A stretch of 53,524 bases of DNA from a virus (lineage: Duplodnaviria; Caudoviricetes): positions 1-53,524 of the IMG/VR virus record IMGVR_UViG_3300049444_000105; one strand, given 5' to 3'. The notes beneath the pieces are model-generated. The model saw only the letters and a program-made list of their open reading frames with translations, was not told the DNA's origin and ran no database searches. This document shows, piece by piece, positions 14,407 to 43,096 of the stretch (the first letter of the stretch is position 1; each line of letters opens with the position of its first letter). Both the position numbers and the translations under genes were made by a program.

Positions 14407-14408
14407 CG

Positions 14409-18019: not shown

Positions 18020-18030
18020 AAGGAAACTTT

Positions 18031-20345: not shown

Positions 20346-20347
20346 GT

Positions 20348-21787: not shown

Positions 21788-21789
21788 CG

Positions 21790-22434
21790 ATGCCGGGAAC
21801 CCTAACCACCTCGCTCGCGCGCACCCCAATGATAGACGCACGGAGCGGGCTCATCACGCGGCCCTGGTTGCTCCATCTCGACACGCTGGGACAGGAGGAA
21901 CAGATGGCAGTGCCCTATGCAGACCTGGCGAGGCGCGGGCAACTGTTCCTGGCCGCGATGCAGGCGCCGGTGCTCTTTCCAGTGGGCTTAACGACGGTGG
22001 GCAGTGGCCTGACGCTCTTTAATCCGGCAGATGCCTTGGTCATGCTGGCGGTGCTCCAGTGTACGGTGTCGATGACCGGGACGCCGACCGCCGCCGTACA
22101 AGCCAACACGGTCATGGCCTATGCCGCCAATGTCGGGACGCCGACGAGCGCGGTGCCGATTGTGCCCGTCAATGGGCTGGTGGGGGGCACGGTGGCGCCG
22201 GTAGGGCAGGCGTATAGCTCGTGTACGCTGCCGGCTGGGCTCGTGGTCGTGCGTCTGCATCCCGTGAGTCTCAGCCATGAGACGGCGGTGGGCGGGCAAC
22301 GCTTGAGCGCCGTGGATCAGGTTGATGGGGCGCTCTGTCTGGCACCAGGGTCGCTTGTCAGCCTGCAGAACCTGGGGTCAGCCTTCGATGCGATGATATC
22401 AATATGCTGGGCGGAATTGCCGCTGAGAGGATAA
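21790..22434 (+). CDS. Hypothetical virion protein
   Basis: N-terminal P.ID..SGLITRPW motif; follows the gp10-like gene. Confidence 0.65.
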   Translation: MPGTLTTSLARTPMIDARSGLITRPWLLHLDTLGQEEQMAVPYADLARRGQLFLAAMQAPVLFPVGLTTVGSGLTLFNPADALVMLAVLQCTVSMTGTPTAAVQANTVMAYAANVGTPTSAVPIVPVNGLVGGTVAPVGQAYSSCTLPAGLVVVRLHPVSLSHETAVGGQRLSAVDQVDGALCLAPGSLVSLQNLGSAFDAMISICWAELPLRG

Positions 22435-22438
22435 GGGT

Positions 22439-24139: not shown

Positions 24140-24656
24140 CGATCAGTTTGGCATGCAGCAGCAATATGGCCAGAGCCCCTGGCAGCGCCGCCGCCGCTCA
24201 ATGGGCATGGGTGGCATGGGCATGGGCGGGTACGGTCAGGGCGCTGGTGGTTGGGGTTCTCAGGCGATGCAGACCCCGCTTGGTCAGACGCCGTATGGCG
24301 GGCAAGGCGGCGGGCAGGACGTGGACTGGAACGCACAGAGGCAGGGGTGGCAGGCGACGGGCGCGGACCCAGCGCAGATGCAAGCGAATACGGCGGCGGT
24401 GCTGCGCCAGCAGCAGGCCAACCAGATGGCGATTGCCAACCAGGATCGGGCCAACCAGGAGGCGGGAGGCGTCAGTGGGCAATCTCCCTACTCTGGCCCT
24501 GGCATGACGATGGGCGACTGGGGCGGTGGCATGGGCATGAACCTGGACGACGACTACTGGGCACGCAAGCGCCGCCAGCAGGGCGGCAATGACCAGATGA
24601 TGTACTGGGGGAGCCCGCAGCAGCAACTCATGAATCAACCCCTAGGTTGGTACTAA
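24129..24656 (+). CDS. Q/G/M/Y low-complexity protein in the ejection module
   Basis: GGAGG RBS; overlaps the upstream gene. Confidence 0.65.
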   Translation: MAFNDQFGMQQQYGQSPWQRRRRSMGMGGMGMGGYGQGAGGWGSQAMQTPLGQTPYGGQGGGQDVDWNAQRQGWQATGADPAQMQANTAAVLRQQQANQMAIANQDRANQEAGGVSGQSPYSGPGMTMGDWGGGMGMNLDDDYWARKRRQQGGNDQMMYWGSPQQQLMNQPLGWY

Positions 24657-24659
24657 ACT

Positions 24660-26828: not shown

Positions 26829-26830
26829 GC

Positions 26831-29023: not shown

Positions 29024-29923
29024 ATGGCCGTCGCACTCGGGCCGGTTCCTCGATTCAGGGCCTTTGACGCCAACGGCAATCCGCTCGCAGGGGGGAAATT
29101 ATTCACGTTTGCCACGGGGACAGGGACGCCCTTGGCGACGTACACCGATGCCAACGGCGCCACGCCCAATCCTAATCCTACCATCCTCGATTCTAGCGGC
29201 GAAGCGAATGTCTGGTACACCATTGGCTCTAGTTACCGCGTGCGGCTCACCGACGCCACGGAAGCCATTGTCTACTATGACATTGGTGGTCTCACGTCGG
29301 GGAGCGTCGGGTCGCTGCTCCTCATCGATGACTATAGCGCCACGATAACCCAGATGCGCGAACTCGCCGACCCCGGCGAGGTGGGCACCGAGAGCCTCGC
29401 CACCAACGCCGCCGGCGAGATTACGCGCAACCGGGCGGTGATGCGCGAGATGAAAGGCACGACGCAGTGGTATGAGACGTACACCACGCGCACGACGACG
29501 GGCACCTTTACGTTGCCGAGCGCCGATGGCACCTGGACGCCCACGGGCACCACGATTGCCTTTTATCGCTTCCATATCCCTGATGGCTGGCTCCCTGGGA
29601 GTGATGTGTTTCTCTTTTACATGCGCCGCGCGGCGGGGGGCGGGGGCACCAAGGCCCGTATGACGGCCCAAGTGCTCCGCCACCGCAACAATACGGCCCT
29701 GGCGGTGCTGGCCTCGGCCGATGTGGACTTTCAACCGGCCGATGTCCAGAACCATCTGGGATCGATCTTGATTAGCGGGGGATCGCTCGCGGTGGGGGAT
29801 TTTATCAATGTGCAGATTACGCGGCTGGGCGATTATGTGGGGCCTCCGGGCGGCGACGATGATCTGCCTGCCGTGGCGCCAGACGGGCATTACTTCCAAT
29901 ATACCGGCATTGCCTCACGCTAA
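29024..29923 (+). CDS. Tail protein with head-binding/attachment N-terminal domain
   Basis: DANGNPLAGGKLFTF..GT.TP.ATYTD...PN.NP.ILDSSGEA. Confidence 0.75.
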   Translation: MAVALGPVPRFRAFDANGNPLAGGKLFTFATGTGTPLATYTDANGATPNPNPTILDSSGEANVWYTIGSSYRVRLTDATEAIVYYDIGGLTSGSVGSLLLIDDYSATITQMRELADPGEVGTESLATNAAGEITRNRAVMREMKGTTQWYETYTTRTTTGTFTLPSADGTWTPTGTTIAFYRFHIPDGWLPGSDVFLFYMRRAAGGGGTKARMTAQVLRHRNNTALAVLASADVDFQPADVQNHLGSILISGGSLAVGDFINVQITRLGDYVGPPGGDDDLPAVAPDGHYFQYTGIASR

Positions 29924-29932: not shown

Positions 29933-30313
29933 ATGCGACGATTCCTGTATGTGCTTGTCCTGGGGCTGTGGCTCTTGCCGCTGCCTGCCGTGGCGCAACT
30001 CTCGACGGAGGACTGTCGCGGCCGCCGCATCCTCATTAACGGCGCCAACCAGGGCACGGATTTCACGGTGGGGGCGACGTCACTGACCATTCTCGACGAG
30101 AATGCCGCGCGCTGTAAAGTCACCATTCGCAACAAGGGTACCGCCCCCATGCGCTGTATGCCGACGCAGCAGGGCACGCCGACGGCCACGCGCGGGTTGG
30201 AGTTTCTGCCGGACAAACAACTCACGTTGGAGACGTCGAGTCGCCCCGCGTGGCTGTGTATCCGGACCACGGGAGCCTCGACCATCGCCGAAACCATCGA
30301 GGAATTGCCATGA
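29933..30313 (+). CDS. Small signal-peptide protein
   Basis: MRRFLYVLVLGLWLLPLPAVA|Q; four Cys. Confidence 0.75.
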   Translation: MRRFLYVLVLGLWLLPLPAVAQLSTEDCRGRRILINGANQGTDFTVGATSLTILDENAARCKVTIRNKGTAPMRCMPTQQGTPTATRGLEFLPDKQLTLETSSRPAWLCIRTTGASTIAETIEELP

Positions 30314-31971
30314 TCCTGCGCCGTGCTGCCGCCATCGCCGTCACCCTGCTCCTTGGCGCACTGCTCGGGAGCCTCAGCCTGGGGCCTGCCTACGCCCTCA
30401 TCTGGTCCACCGGCGAGGCGCCCGTCCTGGTGCGCGGAGCGCTGACGAGTGGCCGCAGCGGGACCGTGCGGGTTACCGAAATTGATGGCACGCCGTCGGG
30501 GAGCTTTACCACGCTCAAGTTTTCCAACGGCTCCCTCGCCGATAATGGCGACGGCACCGCCACCATTACCACCGGCGTCGGCGGCGGGGGCGATGCCTCC
30601 ACCAACACGGCGGTGGCGGTCGATGGCGAAGTGGCCGTGTTTTCCGGCACCGGCGGCAAGACGCTCAAGCGCGGGACAGGCACGGGGATTGCCAAAGTGA
30701 CCGCCGGGGTACTCTCTGCCGCCGTGGCGGGCACCGATTACGTGCTGCCAGGCGGCACTGTGGCCACCGCTACCACGGCGGGCTCCCTCGCGGCGAATGG
30801 CGGCAACTGTACCTTGCCGAACTTCCCCCTTGGGGTGGATGCCTCTGGTGCAGTCGAGGGCTGTACCGCGCTGCCCACGAGTATCACGGGGACGGTCAAC
30901 GAGATTACGGCGTCTGCCGCCACCGGCCCGGTCACGCTGTCGCTCGCCTCCATCGTCAATCTCTCTACCAAGACGCTGCGCATTCCCAATAGTGCGACAC
31001 CGCCTACGTGTTCCACCGGCGACATCTATATGGACATCGACGCCCCGAGCGGGCAACGCCTCCTCCTCTGCGAAGGGGGTACGTTTGTCCAGCAAGGTGG
31101 CAGTGCTGGTCCCGGTTCCACCGCCTTTAGTGCCATTACCGGCGGGGACAACACGGGCGCCGCGATGCGGGTCGACACGGGCGCCAGCCTCACCTACATC
31201 AACGGCGGCTCGATTAACGCCAGCGCCCTGGCGGGAGTCCCGGCGTCGAGCTACCTGACCACCACGAATGCGGCCATTGTCTCTGGCAAGCAACACGTCC
31301 CGCGCGTCGTGCCGACTCCCGCCTCTGGCACCAACGAAGTGCAAATGAACGCCGATACGACGGATGTGGCAGCCATTCCGGTGCTCACGGCTGGCGTGAC
31401 CATCCTGGCCCCCATCGCCACCGGCGCAAACCCGCGCGACCAGCAAGAGATTGATATTGTGTTCGCCCCAACGACAACCCCCCGCAGTATCACTTGGAAC
31501 AACAGTTGGTCCCCTCTGGGCGGCTTTGACTTACCCACCGCCACCACGGGGGATAGTGCGAAATACGACTTCTGCAAGTTCCGCTGGATCCCGGCGCTGA
31601 GTAAATGGGTGCTGGTCGCTACGACAATGGGAGCCGCACCGGGTATTACCACGCTGCCGAGCAATGCGAGCTATCTTTGCCCACAGTTAAGTAGTCGTAG
31701 CTGCCACATGTACCACACTGGAACCCCCGGAAACGTCAACATAGAGATTCCCTCTGGAGGGGCACCTGCCAACGGGAAGCAGCTAGTTCTAAAAATCCGT
31801 TGTGATAACGCCCAGTCGATTACGTTCACCACGGGAGTGGGCGGGTTTATCGCCTCGCCGAACGTGCCTATTACCGGGCTCACGTGCCCAGCAGGCGCGG
31901 CGGCATGGACGGCCATAGGCGTTGAGTATTCCAGTGATCTCAACCGGTATCAGGTCTATGCGACCAACTGA
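30310..31971 (+). CDS. Tail-fibre-like protein with signal peptide
   Basis: MILRRAAAIAVTLLLGALLGSLSLGPAYA|; fibre-like segments (DNGDGTATIT, AVFSGTGGKTLK, AAVAGTDY); two C-terminal beta domains. Confidence 0.75.
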   Translation: MILRRAAAIAVTLLLGALLGSLSLGPAYALIWSTGEAPVLVRGALTSGRSGTVRVTEIDGTPSGSFTTLKFSNGSLADNGDGTATITTGVGGGGDASTNTAVAVDGEVAVFSGTGGKTLKRGTGTGIAKVTAGVLSAAVAGTDYVLPGGTVATATTAGSLAANGGNCTLPNFPLGVDASGAVEGCTALPTSITGTVNEITASAATGPVTLSLASIVNLSTKTLRIPNSATPPTCSTGDIYMDIDAPSGQRLLLCEGGTFVQQGGSAGPGSTAFSAITGGDNTGAAMRVDTGASLTYINGGSINASALAGVPASSYLTTTNAAIVSGKQHVPRVVPTPASGTNEVQMNADTTDVAAIPVLTAGVTILAPIATGANPRDQQEIDIVFAPTTTPRSITWNNSWSPLGGFDLPTATTGDSAKYDFCKFRWIPALSKWVLVATTMGAAPGITTLPSNASYLCPQLSSRSCHMYHTGTPGNVNIEIPSGGAPANGKQLVLKIRCDNAQSITFTTGVGGFIASPNVPITGLTCPAGAAAWTAIGVEYSSDLNRYQVYATN

Positions 31972-31984
31972 GCGAGGAGGTGAT

Positions 31985-34579
31985 GTGCAGTATCCACCTG
32001 CTGTTGTGCTGCTCGTCCTGCTGCTGTGGCCGCTGGCGGCGTTGGCCATTCCACCGGTACTCTCTAGCACGCCACACTACCAGAGTCCGGTGGTGGCGGA
32101 GCCCGATGCCCTGCTGCTGCTGCCAGGCGCCACCTTGGCGGCGACCGATGTGGTCGTGTACCAGGCCCTCAGTAATACCACCGCCACGCTGACGCCGCCG
32201 CTGACGACTCCGACGACGCGCACCGCCACGACCGGGACCGCGCCTATCGCCAGTACCGCACGGGTGCCTGACGCCCTCGTGGTGTATCTCCCCCCAGTCC
32301 TCACGCCTGGCCAGTCCTACGCGCTCTGGGTGCGCAATACCATGGGCGAGTGGAGTAACGGGGTGAAGGTGAACGATGCCCGCCCGCTCTGGCTGACTCC
32401 GGAACTGGGCTACGCCACGGCGCTCTCGCCGGGCCTCCCGACGCGCTATCTCAAGGTGGTAGGGCGCAACCTGGCCCCAGCGCCGGGACAGACCACGCAG
32501 GTGCGCCTCGTGGGACCCGCCACGTATACCATGACCGCGAGCAATGACGGCGATACGACGACGGTCATTGAAGACTACGCCGCCACCGTGACTCTGCCCG
32601 GCACCATGACGGTGGGCACGTATACCGTCGCCGTCAACCGGGATGGGGTCAGCTGGGTCTCGGTGGCTGGCCAGAGCTTTACGGTGAGTGCCAATCCGGC
32701 GACGCCACCGACGTTTAGCCCGACGAGTTACGGGGGATGTGTGGCCGGGGATGCGGGCGATGATGTGGTGTGCATGCAGGCCGCGGCGAATGCGGCGGCG
32801 GCGGCTGGCGGTGGGACGGTGCTCTTAGGCGCGGGGACCTGGCGCATGAATGATGGAACGGTGGGCGGCAGTTCTGACCCCACGTACGGGGCCTGGCTCC
32901 CCATCGGTGTCAACCTTCAGGGGGCCGGGGCTGGCTCCACGACGATTGCACGCGGCGCTGGGTGGAATCCCAACCTGGCCGGTGGCGGCTGGTCCACGAG
33001 TTTTACGCTCCTTGGCAACAATATCGTGAGCGGCATCACGTTTACCGATGAAGCGACGTATGCCCCCACACAGACGGGGCTGCAGCGCATCCTCCGCGTG
33101 GGGGACACGTTTGACGTCACCACCACGGTTGACCGCGTCACGATTACCGCGAATGTCTTTACCAAACCCTATATTGCTCTCGACATTGGGAATCACCGCC
33201 TCAACCATCTGACCGTGACCGCGAACACGTTTGGCGCCTATTTTGCCGCGCTCCGCATGCTGGGCAGCGTCGGCACGTACGGCGACGGCGGCAAGTTTGT
33301 GAACCACCACCTCATCCTCACGGGCAACACGTTCTATCCTGGCAGCTATCTGAACGTCGCAGGGGCGCAAGGCACCGTAGCCGGATTTCTCAGCTCGACC
33401 CGGCGCGCGGACGTGAGCCAGAATACCATCGACGGCACGGCCACCACGTATCTGCAGGTGCCTGGCAGCGATGCGAAAGGCTGGCGCGCGGGCCTGTTCT
33501 GGACCAATCATAGCAGTATCGAGATGAACCTGGTGGCGCGGAACACGTTCACCTGTACGGGGGATAAGGCCGGGGATGGGGAAGCGATTGCCTATGACGG
33601 CACGGACAATCCGACCTTTGCCCACGCGCAGCCCGTCCTCACCGCCACCGCAACAACGGTGAAAGTGCCTGGACCACTCCCCGCCACTGATGTGCACGGC
33701 ACGGCGCTCGATCCGGCCTACTTCTCGGGCGATCTGTGGCTGCTGGTCGTCGACGGGCCGGGGGTGGGGCAAATGCGCCGCTCGGTGGGTGCCGTCACCG
33801 ATGGTTCCGGGACCGTGTTTACGGTGAGCCCGGCGTGGGACGTGACCCCGACCACCGCGAGCAAGCTCACCATGGCCAATGCCTACTGGCAAGTGTATAC
33901 CATTGATAACATGATTGATAGCCGCACGCCGCTGTGCCTCAAAAGCAATCGGAACGTCCCCCAGGCGGGGCTCATTACGCTCTATGGCGGGCCACAGGCC
34001 GACAGCGTGGTGGCGGGGAATAGACAGTATGACTCCGATGGGATTTACCTCAATCTGCGCTATTTTGCGACCGACCCCGCCGCGCCTGGCTACAACCCAG
34101 ACATTCGCACCCACTATTTTGTGGAAGTCCGCCAGAACGTGATTGCCCAGGAATATGACGCCGCCAACGCGGCGAGCCAATCGGGGATTCGCCTCAATCT
34201 CAGCGCCGCGCCAACGCCGACCTATCCCCCGCCAGTCCTGGGGTACGGGATCACCCTGGCGCACAACACCATCAACCACGCGGACAGCCTCTACGGGGCG
34301 ATTGGCCCGTTTAGTGGCTTTGGCTCCAGCGTGTGCGGCCCGGACCCGGACAACTGGCCGGTCATCCAGCATCTGCTGCTTGACCACAATACCCTGACAG
34401 ACCTGGTGGGCGGGACGGGCATCGGGCTGCCGCTGGCCTGTCTCTGGCATACCATCCTGTTGCAGAACACCGTCACGAATGTCACCACGCCGCTCAGCGA
34501 TAGCGCTACGGCGACGGTGCTCTATAGTCCTCCGGCACTGGCCGTGACGACGGGATATTTTCCCGTCTTTCAACCCTAG
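31985..34579 (+). CDS. Tailspike-like right-handed beta-helix protein with Ig-like N-terminus and signal peptide
   Basis: GAGGAGG RBS plus GTG; VVLLVLLLWPLAALA|; DD...QAA..AAAAAGGGTV.L.AGT beta-helix cap. Confidence 0.8.
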   Translation: MQYPPAVVLLVLLLWPLAALAIPPVLSSTPHYQSPVVAEPDALLLLPGATLAATDVVVYQALSNTTATLTPPLTTPTTRTATTGTAPIASTARVPDALVVYLPPVLTPGQSYALWVRNTMGEWSNGVKVNDARPLWLTPELGYATALSPGLPTRYLKVVGRNLAPAPGQTTQVRLVGPATYTMTASNDGDTTTVIEDYAATVTLPGTMTVGTYTVAVNRDGVSWVSVAGQSFTVSANPATPPTFSPTSYGGCVAGDAGDDVVCMQAAANAAAAAGGGTVLLGAGTWRMNDGTVGGSSDPTYGAWLPIGVNLQGAGAGSTTIARGAGWNPNLAGGGWSTSFTLLGNNIVSGITFTDEATYAPTQTGLQRILRVGDTFDVTTTVDRVTITANVFTKPYIALDIGNHRLNHLTVTANTFGAYFAALRMLGSVGTYGDGGKFVNHHLILTGNTFYPGSYLNVAGAQGTVAGFLSSTRRADVSQNTIDGTATTYLQVPGSDAKGWRAGLFWTNHSSIEMNLVARNTFTCTGDKAGDGEAIAYDGTDNPTFAHAQPVLTATATTVKVPGPLPATDVHGTALDPAYFSGDLWLLVVDGPGVGQMRRSVGAVTDGSGTVFTVSPAWDVTPTTASKLTMANAYWQVYTIDNMIDSRTPLCLKSNRNVPQAGLITLYGGPQADSVVAGNRQYDSDGIYLNLRYFATDPAAPGYNPDIRTHYFVEVRQNVIAQEYDAANAASQSGIRLNLSAAPTPTYPPPVLGYGITLAHNTINHADSLYGAIGPFSGFGSSVCGPDPDNWPVIQHLLLDHNTLTDLVGGTGIGLPLACLWHTILLQNTVTNVTTPLSDSATATVLYSPPALAVTTGYFPVFQP

Positions 34580-34584
34580 CGAGG

Positions 34585-35079
34585 ATGTTCTGTATGTTCT
34601 TGCTTGTCGTCCTGACGCTACTTCTGGGAAGTATCGCCCCGGCGTGGTCTGCCTCCGTTACATGGCTACCAGGACCAGTACAAACATGGCTCAATGGGAC
34701 GGGCGCCCTCGCCAATAACACCCTGGTGCTGTCCGGGGTCATTACGCTGACCTCGGGGGGCTATACCAAAGCGGTCTGCGAGTTGTTTGTGCCGACGTTT
34801 TCGGGCGCCGTCACCGCCAATACGGCCGTGAACGTGTGGATTCTGCGCCAGGTGGACGGCACCAATTACGAAGATAACACGGATGCCACGACCCCGGCCC
34901 GCAACCCGGACATGGTGTTCCCCTTGCGCGCGGTGAGTACAGCGCAGCGCGTGGCCCTGCCGAGTATCGACTTGCCACCGGGGCTCTTTAAGGCGCTGGT
35001 GAAAAATGATGGCACCGGCGTGACGATGAACACGACATGGACACTCAAATGCTTACCCTACGTCTTACAGTCATCCTAG
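34585..35079 (+). CDS. Signal-peptide beta-sandwich protein
   Basis: MFLLVVLTLLLGSIAPAWS|; DGTNYED...LPP..FK.LV.N. Confidence 0.75.
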   Translation: MFCMFLLVVLTLLLGSIAPAWSASVTWLPGPVQTWLNGTGALANNTLVLSGVITLTSGGYTKAVCELFVPTFSGAVTANTAVNVWILRQVDGTNYEDNTDATTPARNPDMVFPLRAVSTAQRVALPSIDLPPGLFKALVKNDGTGVTMNTTWTLKCLPYVLQSS

Positions 35080-35897
35080 CGCTGCTCTGGAGCACGCCAG
35101 CCTGGGCACAGCGCGTGAACATGCAGGCCGCCACGGCGCGCGGTCTCGTCAGTTGGTGGCGCGCGATGCCCCCCACGAGCGGCGGGCAGCAGTGGTACGA
35201 CCTGCTCGGGCGTGCCCCGCTGACCCTGACCAACATGACGAGCGCCGACACCTCGGGGACCACGGCCACGGCGCGGCCGGGCGGCGCGGGCGAAGTACGG
35301 TTCGACGGCACCGATGATTACGCCGTCACGCAGGTGGATGCACGGCTGCTCCCAGCTGAAGCCACCTACACGCTCTGGGTGAAGCGCACGGCGACGGGCG
35401 AATCGTTGCAGGTTCTCTGGGGCGCCGCCACGGGAGCCGGGGATCGTGAGGTGTTTGTGAAAAATAGCGGCGTGCTGGGTTATGCCATTACCTTTACCAC
35501 GGGGAACTTTTCCGGCGATTTTACCGGTCCCACGCTGGCGGTGGGGACCTGGTATCACGTCGCCGTGCAGCACAGTGCGGCACGCGGCTTTCAGCTGCAC
35601 GTCAACTGTGTGCTGGCGCAAGCCTTTGGAGTCGATGGCTCGACGTTTGTCCCCCTGACCCGTGCCCTCATGTTCGGGGCGCATGAGGGCATTGGGGCCT
35701 TTCTCACCGGGGCGATGGACGATATCCGGGTGTATAACCGGGCCTTGAGTGATGCCGAACTGTGTCAGATCGTGCGGGAGTCCAGCGCGGGAGAGCCGCG
35801 CCTGCTGCCGCCGCCGGCCCTGGTGGGGCTCGTGGCTCCGGCGCTGCCGACCGGTGGCAAGCGTGGGAGCTTTTTCAACTTTTTCCAAGCGCAATAA
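35049..35897 (+). CDS. LamG domain protein with signal peptide (paralog of 6839-7714)
   Basis: MLTLRLTVILALLWSTPAWA|; GLVSWW...FDGTDDY...WYHVA...MDDIRVYNRALS. Confidence 0.88.
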   Translation: MLTLRLTVILALLWSTPAWAQRVNMQAATARGLVSWWRAMPPTSGGQQWYDLLGRAPLTLTNMTSADTSGTTATARPGGAGEVRFDGTDDYAVTQVDARLLPAEATYTLWVKRTATGESLQVLWGAATGAGDREVFVKNSGVLGYAITFTTGNFSGDFTGPTLAVGTWYHVAVQHSAARGFQLHVNCVLAQAFGVDGSTFVPLTRALMFGAHEGIGAFLTGAMDDIRVYNRALSDAELCQIVRESSAGEPRLLPPPALVGLVAPALPTGGKRGSFFNFFQAQ

Positions 35898-35905
35898 GGG
35901 TCACA

Positions 35906-38900
35906 ATGATGCTGTTCTGCCTCTGGCTGCTCGTGCTGGTCCTCGCGCTCCCCGTCTCCGGGCAGGCGGCGGTGTACTATATTGCGCCGAGTGGCAACGA
36001 CGGTTTTCCGTGCACCGAGGCGCAACCCTGCAAGAGTATCAACAAAGGGCGCAGCATGCTTGGCCCTGGCGACACGCTGTACTTCCTGGGTGGAGTCTAT
36101 AATGATGCCTTTAATATCAATACATCCAACAATTTACCGAGTGGTCCAAATGCAGCGACCCCCACCGTGATTGCTGGAAAACCTGGTGAAGTCGTTACCC
36201 TAACCAATAGCGGTGGCATTAATATTGGCTTTTCTAGCGACCCGTATCATGCCTGTGGACTTCTTCAGCATGTCCTCTTCAAGAACTTTGTGATTGATGG
36301 GGGGACCATATCCACGCAAGGCTGTGGGCAACCTCCCAATATGAGCGTCGGCCCGCATTTTATCCGGTTTGAAGATATTGAAGTCAAGAATAATGGCTCA
36401 GGGGGTGGGGTCGGCAATGGGTACGGAGCCACCGACCTCAGTTATCTCCGCATCCATATCCATCATAATGGCATTGATCGTCTGGATCATGGGTTGTATG
36501 TCGCCGCACCGCGTACTGTCTATGATGGCATCCACACGCACCATAATAGTGGCTCAGGCTTCCAGTTGTTTGACATAGACCCCAACTGCTTTCCGACCTG
36601 TGCCATAGATGTCGTTATTCGCAATAGCTTTTTCCATGAAAATGCCACCTGGACAGGCGCTGGGTCTGATGGTGCAGGATTGACCACGTCAGGGGCACCG
36701 AACCTTCAGGTGTATAACAACATTTTCTGGAATGAACGGTTTTTCGGTCTGGACCTCAAGGCCACCGTGACGAATGCCCAGGTCTACAACAACACCATTG
36801 TCAACGGCGGAGATATTGGCCTCTACCTCAACAATGATATGGTTGGTCTCAATATTCGAAACAATATTATCCATAGTAATCCTGTCAACGTCCGTGTCAA
36901 CACGTACACCGGGTCAACCTTTAACCATAATTTATGTAATAGTACCAATGCTGTCTGTGATATAACCGGCGATCCACACCTGACGAACCCTCCAGGGTGG
37001 GTCTTTAGCTTAGAAGCGAACAGTGCCGCCCGCAATACTGGCACGCCACTTACACTCTTTTCCACCGATTATATAGGGACACATCGTCCGCAAGGCGCAG
37101 GATGGGACATTGGGGCCTATGAGTTTGTCGAGGGTGGGCCACCGCCCCAGACCTGCGGCCCCAACGAAACGGGCACGCCCCCCAACTGTGTGCCAACCTG
37201 TCCGTCGCCTCACCCGAGTTGTCCTCCCGTCACCTGTCCGCCTAATTGTCCACCAGGCGCGGGGGTCAAAGCTTTTCCCACCGCCGAAGGGCTTGGCGCC
37301 GTGGAAACGACAGGGGGACGTGGTGGTGTCGTGATGGAAGTGAAAAACTTGAACGACAGCGGAGCTGAGAGCCTGCGCGCCTGCGCCGAGGCGACTGGAC
37401 CACGGACCTGTGTGTTTCGCGTGGGCGGGGTGATCGAGCTGCAAAGTCCACTGGGGATTTATGAGGCCAATTCTTACCTCACGATTGCCGGCCAGACTGC
37501 CCCAGGGGAAGGCATTACCCTCAAATACTGGCCCGTACAGATATCCTACGGGGCGCATGACGTGATTATTCGCCATCTGCGCCACCGCCAGGCGTATGAC
37601 ATAGTGCCAGAAGACGGCAACAATGCCTGTGGCGCGTTTGTCGTCTATGGGGCTGACTCCCCCTGTCCCTGTCCACCGGGTTTGGGACGCTCTTATCATA
37701 CCTATAACGTCATCCTCGACCACATCTCCGCAGCCTATACCTGTGACGATTCCATGCAAGGGGTGGGGTATGTCAGCAACGTCACGTTTCAGTGGAGCTT
37801 AACGGGGGAGGGGTATGAAGGTTCGCAGGGCGATCCTTTCGGCTCCTCCAAGGGCTATATCGGCCAGGCCAATCAGGCAGAATCGCCGCAGGCCAGTGTC
37901 TCCTATCATCACAATATGATTGTGCACTCCTTCGCCCGCAATCCGGCGGTGAGTCCGTTTGGCCTCTTTGATTATCGCTATAATCTCGTCTATAACTGGC
38001 AAGCCTGCACGGGGAGCGTGAATTTCGGCGACGCCAACGACCATGTTGATACCTCATTACCAGATAACGTCAACTTTGTGGGGAATATCTATCTGGCTGG
38101 CCCCAACACACAGGCTGACTTTACCGGGGCGGGGTGCTGGCTCGGCAACTTGTATAGACATAGCCCGTTGCAAATTTATGTGCAGGACAATGAGACGCCG
38201 TGGTGTGGCGGCAGTGCCTGTGCAGCCAATGCCTGGAATATTGGGTGGGGCACAGATTCTCCGCCCTTTTACGATTATCCTCCCAACGAGGCAGTCTTAC
38301 GCAAAGCCACCCCGCACGCGGCGCCGTCCGTGCCCGCCCTCCCCAGAAACCAACTAGAATCCACGCTGAGCACAAGAGTGGGGGCGACGGTGCCGAAGCG
38401 CGACTCTCTGGATACTCGCATTCTTGGCGAGTTAGCAGCGCGTACCGGCAATATTGGCCGCTTAGGGGCGCCGTTTCCGACCGTTGCTACGTGTAATGGC
38501 ATATCCACCACGCCGCCGTGTACCGCGGCGCCTGCGGACACCGACCATGACGGCATGCCGGATGCGTGGGAAGACGCGCACGGCCTGGACAAGAACAATG
38601 CTGCCGACCGCAACGCTAAGACGACGTTTCCGAACGGCACCGGCAACGGCTATACGAACGTGGAGAACTACCTCAACGAATTGGCTGGGGATGCCATTCC
38701 CACAGGAACACAAGAGGGTCCGACAGGCAATCCTATCTATGTGGCGGCCACGGGCGGGACTCCGACCACCGACTGTGTTGCCGCTGAGAACCAGGCGACA
38801 CCCATACGGACGATTGCTACGGCGATGCTGTGCATGGGCACGGTCCCTGGCAAAATCATGTACATTAAAACAGGCACGTACACCGATTGCATCGATACGT

Positions 38901-39901
38901 CGGCGACGCCCATCAAAGGAGGCAACGGCCCGAGCTACACCGACGCCACCATGATCAGGACCTTTGGCACCGATGCTGTCACCATTAAACCAACCTCCTG
39001 CCCATTGACCGGCGTGGGGGTGTTCTTTCGCAATGGTGCGAACGATAGCTATATTGTCCTTCGCGGCTCTGCCACGAATAAGCTCGTGTTGGATGGAACC
39101 AATGTCGGCAACAATATTGCCTTCTACCCCAACGCCAACCATATCCGTTTTGAGTATGTCGATGTGGTGGCCTCTGCGACCTTTGAAGCCATTTATGCCC
39201 AACAGGCAGCCAACATTGAGTTTGTGGATTCCCTGATCCATGGGGGGGCGACTGACGGGATAGTCTTTATTGATAGCGCGCTCAACTGGTTGTTTGAACG
39301 CACCATGATCTCCAGTCACGGCAGACATGGCATTATTCAGAACTCGGGCACCGTGACGGGACTGACGGTCAAAGAAAGCACGGTGAAGAGTAACCTAGAG
39401 CGAGGGATAGCGATAGGCAACTCCACGGGTGTTACCATCCTGAACAGCCTGATCCATAGCAACGGTGGTATTGGTCTCCATCTGGCGTCCCCTGCGTCTG
39501 GACCCAAGGTGTCGAACAATACGATCGCTGGGAACACCGGCAATGGCTTCCAGTGTGATCTTGGGGTCAGTGGGGCTGAAGTCAAGAATAGTATCGTCTT
39601 CGGGAATACGCCTGGCAACCTGGTCAACACCTGTACCGCTGCGGTGGTGACGAACCTCACCACTGATCCGCTCTTTGTCAATGCGGCGGGAGGCGACTAC
39701 CACCTGGCCGATGGTTCGCCTGGGATCAATGCCGGTACGCCAGATGCAAGCATCACCGTGGACCTGGACGGCAATGTGCGTCCAGACCTCGGGGGTACCA
39801 TTGACATTGGCGCGTATGAGCGCGGACAGGTGCCACCCGATCCTGGCGAGAACATGGCCATATTACAAAGAATCCTACGCTATGCAGGATTTTTCTTTTA
39901 G
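35906..39901 (+). CDS. Multidomain exported protein: beta-helix, PL1-like pectate lyase, beta-helix
   Basis: Signal MMLFCLWLLVLVLALPVSGQA|; AFPTAEG.G..TTGGRGG, TIAGQTAPG, VILDH, RNP, DTDHDGMPDAWE; two DIGAYE ends. Confidence 0.88.
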   Translation: MMLFCLWLLVLVLALPVSGQAAVYYIAPSGNDGFPCTEAQPCKSINKGRSMLGPGDTLYFLGGVYNDAFNINTSNNLPSGPNAATPTVIAGKPGEVVTLTNSGGINIGFSSDPYHACGLLQHVLFKNFVIDGGTISTQGCGQPPNMSVGPHFIRFEDIEVKNNGSGGGVGNGYGATDLSYLRIHIHHNGIDRLDHGLYVAAPRTVYDGIHTHHNSGSGFQLFDIDPNCFPTCAIDVVIRNSFFHENATWTGAGSDGAGLTTSGAPNLQVYNNIFWNERFFGLDLKATVTNAQVYNNTIVNGGDIGLYLNNDMVGLNIRNNIIHSNPVNVRVNTYTGSTFNHNLCNSTNAVCDITGDPHLTNPPGWVFSLEANSAARNTGTPLTLFSTDYIGTHRPQGAGWDIGAYEFVEGGPPPQTCGPNETGTPPNCVPTCPSPHPSCPPVTCPPNCPPGAGVKAFPTAEGLGAVETTGGRGGVVMEVKNLNDSGAESLRACAEATGPRTCVFRVGGVIELQSPLGIYEANSYLTIAGQTAPGEGITLKYWPVQISYGAHDVIIRHLRHRQAYDIVPEDGNNACGAFVVYGADSPCPCPPGLGRSYHTYNVILDHISAAYTCDDSMQGVGYVSNVTFQWSLTGEGYEGSQGDPFGSSKGYIGQANQAESPQASVSYHHNMIVHSFARNPAVSPFGLFDYRYNLVYNWQACTGSVNFGDANDHVDTSLPDNVNFVGNIYLAGPNTQADFTGAGCWLGNLYRHSPLQIYVQDNETPWCGGSACAANAWNIGWGTDSPPFYDYPPNEAVLRKATPHAAPSVPALPRNQLESTLSTRVGATVPKRDSLDTRILGELAARTGNIGRLGAPFPTVATCNGISTTPPCTAAPADTDHDGMPDAWEDAHGLDKNNAADRNAKTTFPNGTGNGYTNVENYLNELAGDAIPTGTQEGPTGNPIYVAATGGTPTTDCVAAENQATPIRTIATAMLCMGTVPGKIMYIKTGTYTDCIDTSATPIKGGNGPSYTDATMIRTFGTDAVTIKPTSCPLTGVGVFFRNGANDSYIVLRGSATNKLVLDGTNVGNNIAFYPNANHIRFEYVDVVASATFEAIYAQQAANIEFVDSLIHGGATDGIVFIDSALNWLFERTMISSHGRHGIIQNSGTVTGLTVKESTVKSNLERGIAIGNSTGVTILNSLIHSNGGIGLHLASPASGPKVSNNTIAGNTGNGFQCDLGVSGAEVKNSIVFGNTPGNLVNTCTAAVVTNLTTDPLFVNAAGGDYHLADGSPGINAGTPDASITVDLDGNVRPDLGGTIDIGAYERGQVPPDPGENMAILQRILRYAGFFF

Positions 39902-39911
39902 GAGCATGAGC

Positions 39912-42170
39912 ATGACCCACCTCGTCGCTAGCCTTCTCGCCATGGTGCTCTGTCTCTGCAGCATGACGCTGCGACCCGTCGCAGCCGAGCCCAAAGCGTT
40001 CCCTAGCGCAGAAGGATTCGGAGCCCTGGAGACAAAAGGGGGAAGGGGTGGGAGAGTTATAAAGGTAACAAACTTGAACGACAGTGGAGCTGGCAGTCTG
40101 AGGGCGTGTGCGGAAGCCACTGGACCACGCTATTGCCTCTTTGAGGTCGGCGGGGTTATTACGCTCAACAGTCCCCTCCAGATTGCGGCGGCCAACTCCT
40201 ACCTCACCATCGCCGGGCAGACGGCGCCGGGCGACGGCATTACCCTCAAGTGGGGTCCGGTCATCATTGCCTACGGCGCGCATGATGTGATTATTCGCCA
40301 TCTGCGCCACCGCCAAGCCTACGATGACGTCTCACAGGCCACCAATAGCTCGTGTGGCGGCTTCATGGTCTATGGGCCTTTTGATGCCAGTTCCGGGAAG
40401 TCCCTGCACGTCTCCAACGTCATCCTCGATCACGTCTCCGTGGCGTATGCCTGCGATGACTCGGTGCAGGGTGTCGGCTATGTGACGGGCGTCACGGTGC
40501 AGTGGAGCCTCATCGGGGAAGGCTACGAAGGCAGCAAGGGCGATCCCTATGGTAGCTCGAAGGGCTATATCGGCCAGGCCAACCAGCCAGAATCGCCGCA
40601 GGCCCAGGTCGCCTTTCACCACAATCTCATCATCAATAGCGCCAGTCGCAATCCTGCCGTCAGCCCCTTTGGCCTGTTTGACTATCGCTACAACCTGGTC
40701 CATAACTGGTCGGCGTGCACGGGCAGCGTGAATTTTGGCGACGCCAACGACCATGTGCCCACGCACCTGCCCGACAATATCAACTTTGTGGGCAATATCT
40801 ACCTCGCCGGTCCCGATACGCAGCAGGACTTCACGGGAGCAGGGTGCTGGCTGGGGGCCTTCTACGACAATAGCCCGCTACAAATCTATGTGAGGGACAA
40901 TGAGACGCCGTGGTGTGGCGGCAGCGCCTGTGCGGCCAACGCCTGGAATCTCGGCTGGGGACGGATTTCCCCGACGCACGGCGATGCCTACCCGGCGCCC
41001 GAGTCCCCGTTTCGCAAAGCGACGCCGCATCCCGCGCCAGCCGTGACGGCCACGCCGCGGGCAAGCCTGGAAGCGACGCTGACGGCCAGCGCTGGCGCGA
41101 CGGTGCCCAAGCGCGATAGCCTAGATACTCGGCTACTGGAGGAGCTGCGTCAGCGTACGACTGGGAGCGTGGGACGCCGGGGGGCACCGTTTCCCACCAT
41201 CGCCACGGCCACCGCGCCCCTGGCCGACAAGGACACCGACAAGGACGGCATGCCCGATGCCTGGGAAGTGGCGCAGGGGCTCAAGCCGAACGATGCGAGC
41301 GATGGGCCAAAAATGGCGCGCAACGGCTACACCAACCTGGAAAACTACCTCAATGCGCTGGCAGGAGACACGATACCTGGTGATGAAGGCCCTGGTCCTG
41401 GGCCGGGGCCAACACCGCCAGAGCCGCCTATTGTGACGCCTGTACCCCCGAGTGGAAATGACGTCTACGTCGCCAAAAATGGCGCAGACAGTAACGATTG
41501 TCCTCGAGCAGAATCGCCCGACACGCCCAAGCTCACCATCGGCTCTGCCCTGACCTGCCTGACAACGCCCGGCAAGCATCTCATCATCAAGGCAGGCGTG
41601 TACACGGAGGCCATCGACACGCAGCAGCAACCGCTGACTGGGGGCACGTCCTGGGAGCAGCCGACGACCATCGAAACGTACCAGAATGATGCCGTCACCA
41701 TCCAACTGCCTGAAGGTGGCGAGATCGCCTTTCGCCTGCGTAACGGTGCCAAAGACCAGTACCTGCTCATCCGGGGGTCCGTCGCGCAGCCGCTCGTCAT
41801 TGACGCGGCGCAGCGGCCAGGCAGCAGTGGCGTCCAGCTTGAAGGCGTGCAGCACATCCGCCTGGAGCAAGTCGAGGTGCGCAACACGGTCTACGAGGCG
41901 GTCTACGCCACGGGCACGAACGATATTACCTGGAGCGACGCTTTCCTCCACCATGCCGGGTACGTGGGGCTCCTCTTCGATGGCACCAACGCCAACTGGA
42001 CGCTGGAGCGCGTGTCGATAACGAGCAATGGGTGGCATGGGATCCTGCACAAGAGCGGGGCTGTGGAGAAGCTGGTGATCAAGGAATCTACGATCAAGCA
42101 TAACGCCAGTCCTGGCATGACTCTCGGGGCGTCCACAGGCGTGCAGGTGCTCAACAGCGTTATCCAATAG
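39912..42170 (+). CDS. Second PL1-like pectate lyase plus C-terminally truncated beta-helix, with signal peptide
   Basis: AGGAG RBS; HLVASLLAMVLCLCSMTLRPVAA|; AFPSAEGFG...GGRGG; close paralog of 37268-39460. Confidence 0.85.
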   Translation: MTHLVASLLAMVLCLCSMTLRPVAAEPKAFPSAEGFGALETKGGRGGRVIKVTNLNDSGAGSLRACAEATGPRYCLFEVGGVITLNSPLQIAAANSYLTIAGQTAPGDGITLKWGPVIIAYGAHDVIIRHLRHRQAYDDVSQATNSSCGGFMVYGPFDASSGKSLHVSNVILDHVSVAYACDDSVQGVGYVTGVTVQWSLIGEGYEGSKGDPYGSSKGYIGQANQPESPQAQVAFHHNLIINSASRNPAVSPFGLFDYRYNLVHNWSACTGSVNFGDANDHVPTHLPDNINFVGNIYLAGPDTQQDFTGAGCWLGAFYDNSPLQIYVRDNETPWCGGSACAANAWNLGWGRISPTHGDAYPAPESPFRKATPHPAPAVTATPRASLEATLTASAGATVPKRDSLDTRLLEELRQRTTGSVGRRGAPFPTIATATAPLADKDTDKDGMPDAWEVAQGLKPNDASDGPKMARNGYTNLENYLNALAGDTIPGDEGPGPGPGPTPPEPPIVTPVPPSGNDVYVAKNGADSNDCPRAESPDTPKLTIGSALTCLTTPGKHLIIKAGVYTEAIDTQQQPLTGGTSWEQPTTIETYQNDAVTIQLPEGGEIAFRLRNGAKDQYLLIRGSVAQPLVIDAAQRPGSSGVQLEGVQHIRLEQVEVRNTVYEAVYATGTNDITWSDAFLHHAGYVGLLFDGTNANWTLERVSITSNGWHGILHKSGAVEKLVIKESTIKHNASPGMTLGASTGVQVLNSVIQ

Positions 42171-42185: not shown

Positions 42186-42593
42186 GTGCCTGATGAGGTG
42201 CAGGGGAGTGTCACCGGCGGCAATGGCAAGGTCGAACTCAAAGTCGGTGATAAGAGTCTCGGCATCGGCGGCAAAGATATTGTCCTCATCATTTTCATCA
42301 TTCTCGTGGGGGCGATGTCCTACGTGCGCACGCTTACCCTCGACCGCGGCATGACGGAGCTGAAGACGGGGCAAGTTACGCTTGCCGCCGAGATGCATAA
42401 GCAAAACGATCTTGTTGCGTCGCAAACCGCCGAACTCAGAGCCGACATGGAAAAGCAGAACGTGCTCCTCAACACCAATAACACTACGCTCAAGCAGATG
42501 CTGCTGCGCCACGATTACAACATGAGCCATGAGGCGGAGCAACACCTGCCGTTGGATCTGACCGCGCCCCTGCCCACAGAACGAGGACGCTAG
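42186..42593 (+). CDS. Single-TM plus coiled-coil protein, putative holin/antiholin
   Basis: IVLIIFIILVGAM TM segment; directly upstream of the endolysin. Confidence 0.55.
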   Translation: MPDEVQGSVTGGNGKVELKVGDKSLGIGGKDIVLIIFIILVGAMSYVRTLTLDRGMTELKTGQVTLAAEMHKQNDLVASQTAELRADMEKQNVLLNTNNTTLKQMLLRHDYNMSHEAEQHLPLDLTAPLPTERGR

Positions 42594-42595
42594 CT

Positions 42596-43096
42596 ATGCC
42601 TATCTCCGACGCCGGTATTGCCTTCTTACGCGAACTAGAGGGCACCAGGAGCCATATGTACCATGATAGCGGGGGGCTGCCCACCATTGGGGTGGGCCAC
42701 CTGCTCACCAAAGATGAAGTGCGCTCTGGTAAGGTCCTCATCGGGGGCGAGTCCATCCACTGGCGCGACGGCCTCACCGAGGCCCAGATTGAGACGCTCT
42801 TGCGGCAGGACCTCGCCGCCCTGGCAGAGCCCCTCCAGCATATTGAGACCGCGCTCCCGGTCATCCTCACCCAGCAGCAACGGGACAGTTTGGCCTGTTT
42901 TATTTTCAACGTTGGGCCGACAGCGTTCCTGAAGTCCACCCTCTGTAAACGGCTACAAACAGGGGATCTCGACGCGGTACCAGCCCAGATGCGGCGATGG
43001 TTCTATAGCGCAGGCAAACGGGACCCAGGACTCGTCAACCGGCGTGAACGCGAAATCGCGCTGTGGGAAGGCGGCAGCGGGTCAGCGCTGGCGTAA
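42596..43096 (+). CDS. Endolysin, GH24 lysozyme
   Basis: LEG....Y.DSGGLPTIGVGH, F.FNVG, STL, GLVNRR.RE. Confidence 0.93.
   Translation: MPISDAGIAFLRELEGTRSHMYHDSGGLPTIGVGHLLTKDEVRSGKVLIGGESIHWRDGLTEAQIETLLRQDLAALAEPLQHIETALPVILTQQQRDSLACFIFNVGPTAFLKSTLCKRLQTGDLDAVPAQMRRWFYSAGKRDPGLVNRREREIALWEGGSGSALA

Follow-up and report, generated by a model that had tools for sequence, protein, structure and literature searches.

The closest described counterparts are the distal-tail genes of cultured Cellulophaga phages: phi10:1 gp091-095, phi39:1 gp25-26, phi3:1 gp8-9 and phi13:2 gp084/086/087. These phages have two to five signal-bearing genes that are consecutive, except in phi13:2, where the signal-less gp085 intervenes. 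The genes lie between tail or head genes and holin-like or lysis genes, and include a pectate-lyase domain. GenBank record notes list several of the products (phi10:1 gp091-094 and phi39:1 gp25-26) as found in virions by MS/MS. In full-text literature searches we found no paper that points out these signals. Beta-helix glycan-cutting proteins that are exported by an N-terminal signal to act on the cell's own polysaccharide are known from bacterial exopolysaccharide pathways, where they are encoded in host polysaccharide gene clusters (e.g., WceF, which uses a Tat signal (PMC7949094), and VexL (PDB 6fi2)). Bdellovibrio MAT fibre proteins are phage-tail-fibre-like adhesins of a predatory bacterium that carry signal peptides and work outside the cytoplasm; they are about 1000 aa long and many have S74 chaperone-protease ends (PMC10769870). 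Classical phage depolymerases (tailspikes such as those of P22, HK620 and CBA120) share the right-handed beta-helix fold and lie next to tail genes, but have an N-terminal particle-binding domain and no signal, and fold in the cytoplasm. Cellulophaga phi13:1 gp024 is an example, as it carries the same lyase domain behind a signal-less fibre N-terminus. Other phage genes predicted to use the host's general secretion pathway include five from Porphyromonas gingivalis phages that obey the Q rule (PMC10367356), 5% of prophage CAZymes (PMC13507307) and one viral NosD-like protein (PMC13452462). These are scattered single genes of unknown role, and none is described as a contiguous block of tail-module proteins.

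We analyzed the tailed-phage (Caudoviricetes) record IMGVR_UViG_3300049444_000105 (the window, 53,524 nucleotides in full), in which 12 kb between the tail and lysis genes encode seven proteins with predicted export signals. A first-pass annotation had described seven consecutive genes with Sec-type signal peptides at this location, and this observation is confirmed, with coordinates and N-termini as it gave them. The block differs from that of the Cellulophaga phages in that their hosts are Bacteroidota, their particle types differ, their proteins contain few Cys (0-4), and MS/MS notes exist only for them.

Table. Features of the predicted export block and its comparison genes (cleavage sites and domain assignments are predictions).
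Feature	Coordinates	Strand	Length (aa)	Cleavage after	Mature Cys	Description
29024 product	29024..29923	+	299		0	Tail fibre or adaptor-like protein without a signal
ORF1	29933..30313	+	126	PAVA	4	Small exported protein
ORF2	30310..31971	+	553	PAYA	9	Fibre-repeat protein with an RR-containing signal and a conserved C-terminal domain
ORF3	31985..34579	+	864	AALA	6	Two beta-sandwich domains and a right-handed beta-helix; bacterial secreted family
ORF4	34585..35079	+	164	PAWS	2	Jelly-roll protein; signal-bearing member of a large, mostly signal-less phage family
ORF5	35049..35897	+	282	PAWA	2	LamG/ConA-like lectin-fold protein; paralogue of the 6839 product
ORF6	35906..39901	+	1331	SGQA	32	Three-part enzyme: N-terminal beta-helix, pectate-lyase-like middle, C-terminal beta-helix
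ORF7	39912..42170	+	752	PVAA	10	Pectate-lyase/VexL-like enzyme; paralogue of ORF6 residues 449-1184; ends inside the beta-helix
Lysis genes	42186..43096	+				Membrane protein (holin/spanin-like) and a lysozyme without any signal or SAR-like segment
6839 product	6839..7714	+			0	Signal-less LamG paralogue of ORF5, between terminase and portal

We calculated N-terminal hydropathy for 43 ORFs. The seven block ORFs start with a Leu-rich hydrophobic core, and have a best 12-residue Kyte-Doolittle mean of 2.28-3.14 starting at residues 2-8. Among the 28 plus-strand ORFs upstream (1556..29923) the highest value is 2.21 (1889-2464), so none reaches the lowest value of the block; the 29024 product scores 0.86. 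The only other high value is in an internal membrane segment of the holin/spanin-like ORF (3.56 at residue 32). The cleavage sites proposed in the annotation are all present. Position -3 is A/G/V and position -1 is A/S in 7 of 7, and a Pro or Gly lies a few residues upstream of each site. Only 3 of 7 signals have a net positive n-region. The assignment rests on hydropathy, the -3/-1 rule and conservation, and uncleaved signal anchors cannot be excluded.

The gene starts are well constrained. Those of ORF1 and ORF4 are the first possible starts in their frames, and spacing from the 29024 gene through to the first lysis gene is +9, -4, +13, +5, -31, +8, +10 and +15 nt. GGAG/GAGG-like (Shine-Dalgarno-like) motifs precede ORF1, ORF2, ORF3, ORF4 and ORF7. 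For ORF3 (31985 GTG or 31958 ATG) and ORF5 (35049 or 35037) either start includes the hydrophobic core. The block is also rich in Cys, which accounts for 65 of 3913 mature residues (1.66%), against 43 of 7474 (0.58%) in 20 other ORFs.

Whether homologues lack the hydrophobic N-termini had been named beforehand as a way to disprove the signals; they are kept in homologues of ORF1, ORF2 and ORF3. Both homologues of ORF1 (2 of 2) retain a signal and all four Cys, and the nearest ESM Atlas clusters are viral and unnamed. The seven closest homologues of ORF2 all have hydrophobic N-termini, and six of them align through the signal. For ORF3, 81 of the 120 homologues listed (of 166) pass a crude hydropathy threshold of 2.0, and the signal is followed by a conserved mature N-terminus. 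In the ORF4, LamG and ORF2 families, the mature N-terminus of signal-bearing members aligns with the very N-terminus of signal-less relatives. Thus, the signal is a clean addition. In two families Cys pairs track the signal. The Cys65/Cys156 pair of ORF4 is present in 12 of 16 signal-bearing and 0 of 112 other members, and a LamG pair in 2 of 3 signal-bearing and 0 of 5 other members, although the pairing may reflect one or a few clades rather than independent events. The signal status of ORF4-like and LamG neighbours agrees in 13 of 13 viral loci (2 both with and 11 both without, with some near-duplicates).

The block is a mosaic. ORF1, ORF2, ORF4 and ORF5 are phage-type proteins whose usual relatives lack signals. 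ORF2 residues ~101-157 form a repeat that is 55-67% identical to fibre-like ORFs in 56 viral contigs, and 50 of these 56 ORFs lack a signal. The ORF4 family has 559 representatives; of the best 150, 17 are signal-bearing and 133 are not. The ORF4 model (pLDDT 90.9) has weak CBM6/35/36 and C1q-like fold matches. ORF5 matches Pfam PF13385 (3.8e-22) and is 32% identical to the 6839 product, aligned from residue 23. A model of an ORF4-ORF5 complex scored 0.68, against 0.06 for the best of three controls; that mark was reached by 58 of 80 solved complexes and 2 of 110 mismatched pairs. The three runs agree in at least 60% of contacts, with partner pLDDT of at least 87.

In contrast, ORF3 belongs to a secreted beta-helix family found on bacterial chromosomes. 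Its listed homologues are 34-52% identical and occur on contigs up to 630 kb, and in 34 bacterial genome loci no other gene of this phage lies within 10 kb. The ORF3 model (pLDDT 86.3, pTM 0.90) has GH110, AlgE epimerases, GH28 and GH87 as its top fold matches. Tailspikes rank lower (HK620, APK14 and CBA120 spikes at a Foldseek E of about 1e-5). ORF6 matches Beta_helix (1.1e-20), NosD (2.7e-12) and the pectate lyase phrog_27797 (1.6e-32), and is atypical in composition (GC 0.555). ORF7, which is 58.7% identical to ORF6, matches a solved pectate lyase (9buj, 1.1e-12) and VexL (6fi2, 1.1e-10), has matches in 36 GenBank phage records, and is homologous to the pectate-lyase domain of the Cellulophaga phages. 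Because it ends inside its beta-helix it may be a decaying copy.

Of the flanking genes, the 29024 product matches phrog_26190 (3.9e-09). Its residues 1-99 are 42-46% identical to short fibre-like ORFs in three viral contigs (L002-L004), and residues 101-299 are 49% identical to an ORF in another contig (L001). In L003 and L004 only small ORFs, and no large signal-bearing ORFs, follow that gene. The lysis genes match an Rz-like spanin (phrog_739, 0.007) and Phage_lysozyme (1.7e-31). Parts of the same block recur in two other viral contigs (L127 and L128), and L127 encodes a 1595-aa signal-bearing relative of ORF6. Similar runs of signal-bearing large ORFs lie before lysis genes in L118, L123, L127 and L128.

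The interpretation offered in the annotation is partly supported. The N-termini behave as genuine, conserved export signals, and the fibre-like, beta-helix, LamG and pectate-lyase assignments and the Cys enrichment hold. Its premise that phage fibres normally lack signals holds for most relatives, although the pattern is not unique to this genome. It proposed that the proteins either join virions at or after lysis or act as released enzymes, and the evidence is divided between these alternatives.

We consider it somewhat more likely than not that the seven genes form one late-expressed module of exported proteins that bind or cut surface polysaccharide. The N-terminal features, their conservation, the Cys distribution and the domain matches are direct results of the sequence analysis, whereas expression, export, cleavage, disulfide formation and activity are inferred. 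In this view the genes would be transcribed with the tail and lysis genes, as inferred from the shared strand, the short gaps and the absence of a convincing intergenic promoter or terminator. Each product would be taken across the inner membrane by its signal and cut by signal peptidase I; ORF1 and ORF2 have an RR pair, so Tat export is not excluded for them. The mature parts would fold in the oxidising periplasm and form disulfides, as inferred from Cys pairs that appear only in the signal-bearing members of two families. ORF4 and ORF5 may form a complex through their most conserved motifs, which is supported by the model only. The proteins would be released together with the virions when the holin and lysozyme act. 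ORF3, ORF6 and ORF7 begin their conserved domains right after the signal, leaving no room for a particle-binding domain, and most likely act as soluble depolymerases on the host's capsule or exopolysaccharide, in the periplasm before lysis and around the burst cell afterwards. The fibre-like and lectin-like proteins (ORF2, ORF4/ORF5 and perhaps ORF1) would bind glycan, and may or may not dock onto particles. The virion notes for the Cellulophaga phages favour virion association for at least some such proteins, and ORF1, ORF2, ORF4 and ORF5 sit where receptor-binding genes usually sit. The likely host group is gammaproteobacteria such as Steroidobacteraceae or Nevskia, but this is a weak inference from the named ORF3 homologues. 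Together with the pattern in cultured marine phages, the block suggests that some phage surface-binding proteins mature outside the cytoplasm.

A possible, but less likely, alternative is that most of the seven are true receptor-binding appendages that mature in the periplasm and dock onto particles built in the cytoplasm only when lysis mixes the two compartments, either on the C-terminal domain of the 29024 product or through the ORF4 adaptor. In phi10:1, 4 of the 12 MS/MS-flagged proteins are the consecutive gp091-094, and in phi39:1 the flagged signal-bearing proteins are gp25 and the pectate lyase gp26. However, the notes cannot exclude co-purifying secreted proteins. phi10:1 gp093/gp094 and phi13:2 gp086/gp087 share the signal plus the first ~20 mature residues and then diverge, which is the usual pattern of a conserved anchor with a variable tip. 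The fibre repeats of ORF2, the modelled docking of the conserved N-terminal motif of ORF5 onto ORF4, the position of the block and the similar runs in other viral contigs also fit this reading. Against it are the lack of phage context for ORF3 in 34 loci, the absence of an N-terminal attachment domain in ORF3, ORF6 and ORF7, and the presence of a signal-less fibre (29024) and a signal-less LamG copy (6839) in the same phage.

It is unlikely that the exported proteins protect the infected cell or lysogen by removing or masking the phage's own receptor glycan from the inside, which would block superinfection and stop progeny from sticking to debris. Export signals with glycan-binding and glycan-cutting folds are compatible with this, and signal-bearing exclusion proteins such as Llp, Cor and Lom lie next to tail genes in T5-like and lambda-like phages. 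However, 12 kb and seven proteins is a lot for exclusion, no integrase or repressor was seen among the ORFs scanned, no strong intergenic promoter was identified for the block, and Sec export alone does not reach the outer face of the outer membrane.

Slightly less likely still is that the hydrophobic N-termini are not used for export during infection, and that the proteins stay cytoplasmic or tethered to the inner membrane and assemble onto virions in the classical way. Four of the 7 n-regions lack a net positive charge, and the MS/MS notes for similar Cellulophaga proteins could be read in this way. However, the c-regions fit the -3/-1 rule in 7 of 7, bacterial ORF3 homologues carry the same kind of signal, and Cys pairs arise together with the signal. 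In addition, the 12 Cellulophaga N-termini inspected all place Gln just after the hydrophobic core, which fits the Bacteroidetes Q rule for signal peptidase I substrates (PMC10367356). We found no evidence for a gene-calling artefact (wrong starts or chance hydrophobic stretches), which is very improbable given the two earliest-possible starts, the tight packing, the Shine-Dalgarno-like motifs, the conserved N-termini, and the contrast of 7 of 7 block ORFs against 0 of 28 upstream ORFs reaching the lowest hydropathy score of the block.

The record is a whole viral sequence of 53,524 bp, in which we found no terminal repeat and no tRNA. PHROG matches give a P22-like gene order on the plus strand, and replication genes lie on the minus strand. 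The coordinates of the features discussed here are collected in the table below, where ORF1 to ORF7 are the seven consecutive genes located between the tail protein and the lysis genes.

Coordinates of features in the phage record and in comparison sequences
Sequence	Coordinates	Strand	Feature
This record	3828-5318	+	Terminase
This record	5540-10120	+	Unusual set of genes between terminase and portal
This record	5540-6046		Signal-less product with a signal-bearing relative in L127
This record	6034-6834		Candidate ORF4-like partner of the signal-less LamG copy; 25% hhalign probability
This record	6839-7714	+	Signal-less, Cys-free LamG paralogue of ORF5
This record	7714-8217		Candidate ORF4-like partner; hhalign probability below 1%
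This record	8198-8641		Candidate ORF4-like partner; hhalign probability below 1%
This record	9089-10120	+	DUF4097 toastrack-like protein (2e-06)
This record	11510-14023	+	Portal (2e-96)
This record		+	Scaffold
This record	16769-18019	+	Major head protein (1.8e-68)
This record	20324-21787	+	Hc3-type head-closure protein (1.1e-102)
This record	26831-29023	+	Transglycosylase protein, among the ejection-type proteins
This record	29024-29923	+	Tail protein, 299 aa
This record	35906-39901	+	ORF6
This record	39912-42170	+	ORF7
This record	42186-43096	+	Membrane protein and lysozyme
This record	44017-44937	-	306-aa protein with a twin-arginine-like N-terminus
This record	47705-48307	-	T5orf172/MUG113-domain protein (5.5e-18)
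This record	51376-52428	-	D12-class adenine methyltransferase (5.1e-08)
Cellulophaga phage phi10:1 (KC821618; L170)	41847-48878		Run of signal-bearing distal-tail proteins
Cellulophaga phage phi39:1 (L164)	3839-7386		Run of signal-bearing distal-tail proteins
Cellulophaga phage phi3:1 (L168)	2828-7359		Run of signal-bearing distal-tail proteins
Cellulophaga phage phi13:2 (L167)	2380-8359		Run of signal-bearing distal-tail proteins
Viral contig L118 (96 kb)	9119-18059		Three large ORFs with signal-like N-termini
Viral contig L123 (48 kb)	6531-13431		Three large ORFs with signal-like N-termini
Viral contig L127	8584-9219		Relative of the 5540-6046 product, with a signal-like N-terminus

The first-pass annotation had reported that each of the seven genes begins with a hydrophobic core and a plausible cleavage site, and this observation holds. 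We examined 43 ORFs. The seven ORFs of the block have a 12-residue N-terminal hydropathy of 2.28-3.14, starting at residues 2-8, whereas the 28 upstream ORFs reach at most 2.21. The cleavage regions proposed in that annotation are present and follow the -3/-1 rule in 7 of 7 (A/G/V at -3 and A/S at -1), with a Pro or Gly a few residues before. The n-region has a net charge of +2, +2 and +1 in ORF1, ORF2 and ORF5, and 0 in ORF3, ORF4, ORF6 and ORF7, although homologues of ORF4 mostly have Arg or Lys there. By inspection only, the N-termini do not resemble SAR (signal-arrest-release) domains, as the cores are Leu/Val-rich and are followed by small-x-small sites. Wrong starts are unlikely: two starts are the earliest possible in their frames, gaps to the neighbouring genes run from -31 to +15 nt, and Shine-Dalgarno-like motifs precede five of the starts. 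A consensus scan gave no convincing intergenic promoter or terminator, and we infer that the block is read together with the tail and lysis genes. The features of a moron or lysogenic-conversion cassette (its own promoter and terminator, and unusual composition) were not found, as GC3 is 0.74-0.79 in six of the genes, like the rest of the phage, and only ORF6 deviates, at 0.62.

We evaluated the predicted signals by their conservation. ORF1 has only two homologues, both of which keep a signal and all four Cys. The seven closest homologues of ORF2 all have hydrophobic N-termini, and six align through the signal. Among 120 proteins that share the ORF2 repeat, 59 have hydrophobic N-termini; among 56 viral-contig fibre ORFs, 6 do, and five of those six are the same protein. 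For ORF3 there are 166 homologues, 120 of which were listed (34-52% identity). Of these 120, 81 pass a crude hydropathy threshold, and the signal is followed by a strongly conserved mature N-terminus. Several of the 39 that fail the threshold start at or beyond that conserved N-terminus, and so look truncated.

ORF4 belongs to a family of 559 representatives, and only 17 of the best 150 carry a signal. Among 128 members of 130-200 aa, 12 of the 16 signal-bearing ones have the Cys65/Cys156 pair and none of the 112 others does; the remaining four signal-bearing members each have two Cys elsewhere. These may represent few independent events. ORF5 is 32% identical to the LamG paralogue located between terminase and portal, aligned from its residue 23. 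Two of three signal-bearing LamG relatives share a Cys pair that is absent from five signal-less ones. In all three phage-type families (ORF2, ORF4 and LamG), the predicted mature N-terminus lines up with the very N-terminus of the signal-less relatives. The mature Cys density is 1.66% in the block and 0.58% elsewhere. Taken together, these points support real export into an oxidising compartment.

ORF3 is confidently modelled (pLDDT 86.3, pTM 0.90) as two beta-sandwich domains plus a right-handed beta-helix. Its best fold matches are bacterial secreted enzymes (GH110, AlgE epimerases, GH28 and GH87), and tailspikes and RbmB rank lower. Homologues of ORF3 lie in 34 genome loci of Steroidobacteraceae, Nevskia, Methylococcaceae, Dyella and others, and no other gene of this phage lies within 10 kb of them. 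A conserved bacterial cluster of the seven genes is rejected: a tblastn search of 43 proteins of this record against the 34 loci hit only ORF3, plus one weak LamG match at 1.5e-4. ORF3 is thus a member of a bacterial secreted family, although its GC3 matches the phage.

ORF7 matches a solved pectate lyase (9buj, 1.1e-12) and the periplasmic depolymerase VexL (6fi2, 1.1e-10). For ORF7 and the middle part of ORF6, phrog_27797 was matched at 3.9e-39 and 1.6e-32. Pfam gave only Beta_helix/NosD at E of 0.01 or better, with no match to a pectate-lyase family model, and we refer to both proteins only as lyase-like. ORF7 is 58.7% identical to residues 449-1184 of ORF6 and has its own signal. It stops in the middle of the C-terminal beta-helix, and no remnant of the missing part was found downstream of its stop. 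ORF6 has much lower GC (0.555) and GC3 than the rest of the phage, which suggests recent acquisition. In ORF3, ORF6 and ORF7 the conserved mature domains start directly after the signal, without the N-terminal particle-binding domain of a phage tailspike. Only the 299-aa tail protein has a shared fibre N-terminus.

ORF2 carries a fibre repeat (residues ~101-157) shared at up to 67% identity with ORFs in 56 viral contigs, and its hits carry Mtd_N, collagen and similar domains. ORF5 matches Pfam Laminin_G_3 with 79.5 bits, against a gathering cut-off of 27.6. ORF1 and ORF4 resemble only unnamed viral clusters. ORF4 is modelled as a jelly roll (pLDDT 90.9) with weak likeness to CBM6/35/36 and C1q, but a Foldseek search of the PDB gave no match at E of 0.001 or better. 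None of 28 members of the ORF4 family matched any PHROG, and only two stray Pfam hits appeared.

ORF4-like and LamG genes appear to change compartment as a unit. In 13 viral loci an ORF4-like gene is followed directly by a LamG gene; both carry signals in 2 loci (L127 and L128), neither does in 11, and none is discordant, although L142-144 and L147/L159 are near-duplicates. A complex model of mature ORF5 with mature ORF4 scored 0.68, against a best control of 0.06. That mark was reached by 58 of 80 solved complexes and 2 of 110 mismatched pairs, counts that hold only roughly because our own alignments were used. The runs agree in at least 60% of contacts, and partner pLDDT is at least 87. The interface uses the most conserved motifs of both families (ORF5 residues 41-71, and ORF4 residues 77-83, 106-116, 125-129 and 142-143). 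The model supports binding but does not show it. An ORF4-like partner for the signal-less LamG copy was sought by hhalign among three nearby products (table) and ORF1, which also scored below 1%; none was shown. In other viral contigs, the ORF4-like/LamG cassette and relatives of the 8198-8641 product also lie near the terminase.

Parts of the block recur in other viral contigs. L127 comes from a different kind of phage, with a 1603-aa central tail protein. It carries five signal-bearing ORFs in a row: an ORF2-like ORF, a relative of the signal-less 5540-6046 product, an ORF4-like ORF, a LamG ORF and a 1595-aa ORF6-like ORF, followed by holin-like genes. The second of these would be a further family that switches compartment, after the ORF4, LamG and ORF2 families. 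L128 has signal-bearing ORF2-like, ORF4-like and LamG ORFs, followed by an ORF6-like ORF. L118 and L123, which are unrelated to these and to this phage, each have three large ORFs with signal-like N-termini after the head genes, although two of the three in L118 score just below our cutoff of 2.2 (2.18 and 2.11). One ORF in L118 has tailspike-type PHROG matches, and holin-like and lysozyme-like genes follow it. Other searches for relatives gave little. Among GenBank phages, megablast of positions 29024-42170 found nothing, nor did tblastn with ORF2, ORF3, ORF4 and the signal-less LamG copy. A single-protein scan of viral contigs with ORF2 found no relative, and one scan of metagenome contigs with the ORF2 alignment gave only a 1.3-kb fragment and one weak hit.

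Cultured phages show the same pattern: cultured Bacteroidota phages have runs of two to five signal-bearing distal-tail proteins. The lyase domain of ORF7 hits 36 GenBank phage records, 21 of them Cellulophaga phages. In phi10:1, gp091-gp095 are five consecutive proteins with signal-like N-termini, located between tail genes and holin-like genes. Of the 94 CDS of 40 aa or more in this phage, 12 have such N-termini, and the other seven are small lipoprotein-like or membrane proteins. Notes in the record, reportedly based on Holmfeldt et al. 2013, flag 12 proteins as MS/MS virion components, four of which are gp091-094. In phi39:1, gp25 and the pectate lyase gp26 both carry signals and both are flagged. 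Signals are also carried by phi3:1 gp8-9 and by phi13:2 gp084, gp086 and gp087, whereas phi13:1 gp024 carries the same lyase domain behind a classical signal-less fibre N-terminus. All 12 signal-like N-termini inspected in these Cellulophaga phage runs place Gln just after the hydrophobic core, which fits the Bacteroidetes Q rule for signal peptidase I substrates (PMC10367356). The pairs phi10:1 gp093/gp094 and phi13:2 gp086/gp087 share the signal and about the first 20 mature residues, then diverge.

We consider export to be well supported. The hydrophobic N-termini, their conservation and the associated Cys pairs are observed in the sequences, whereas export and cleavage, joint transcription, lyase activity and the binding of ORF4 to ORF5 are inferred from sequence or models. 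The interpretation in the first-pass annotation, that exported proteins either join virions at or after lysis or act as released polysaccharide-degrading enzymes, is partly supported, as the evidence favours export but does not settle the choice between these fates. A soluble-enzyme role is favoured for ORF3, ORF6 and ORF7, because their closest family or fold relatives are bacterial secreted or periplasmic enzymes (although the ORF7 lyase domain also occurs in phage records) and they have no room for a particle-binding domain. The phage also keeps a signal-less fibre and a signal-less LamG copy. In addition, viral contigs L003 and L004, found through the N-terminus of the tail protein, go from that gene to small ORFs, one of which in L003 has a membrane-like segment, without any such block. 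We therefore conclude, as somewhat more likely than not, that the genes encode an exported, periplasm-matured module that acts on surface glycan.

Completion of virions outside the cytoplasm is the main rival, and remains possible but less likely. It is kept alive by the Cellulophaga MS/MS notes, by the phage-type nature and position of ORF1, ORF2, ORF4 and ORF5, and by the modelled anchor-like docking of ORF5 on ORF4. P22 heads accept tailspikes in vitro, so completion after lysis is physically plausible. In this tentative view, a class of tailed phages, in at least Pseudomonadota and Bacteroidota hosts, would route receptor-binding proteins through the host's secretion pathway, and the virion would be finished at or after lysis with periplasm-matured fibres, lectins and depolymerases. 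As far as our searches reach, this assembly route has not been described for Caudoviricetes.

Bacterial exported tailspike-like or fibre-like proteins are known, including WceF (PMC7949094), VexL and the Bdellovibrio MAT fibres (PMC10769870), and scattered signal-bearing phage genes have been reported (PMC13507307; PMC13452462; PMC10367356). Full-text literature searches, which also led to PMC5723332 and bioRxiv 10.1101/2020.10.09.334284, found no description of a contiguous tail-module block of signal-bearing proteins, nor any mention of the signals on the Cellulophaga phage structural proteins. Textbook assembly of tailed phages takes place entirely in the cytoplasm, yet here a whole receptor-interaction module carries predicted export signals. 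Either phages release periplasm-matured cocktails of depolymerases and adhesins at lysis, or some virions are completed outside the cytoplasm. Both outcomes bear on how host range, biofilm penetration and depolymerase production are understood, and on how virus-encoded carbohydrate-active enzymes are counted in metagenomes. The question is open to direct testing, because cultured phage-host pairs with existing virion proteomics show the pattern.

The 306-aa protein located just beyond the lysis genes, on the opposite strand, has an RR pair followed by a hydrophobic stretch and a weak TPR match (TPR_19 at 2.4e-4, below the cut-off). It would be a further exported protein. The T5orf172/MUG113-domain protein and the adenine methyltransferase lie among the replication genes, and no integrase was seen among the ORFs scanned. 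The exact ORF2 and ORF1 proteins, and ORF3 from a start 7 codons downstream (857 of 864 aa), are on record from 7-12 contigs, the longest of 62,062 bp. This phage or a near-identical one has therefore been assembled repeatedly, once on a contig longer than this record.
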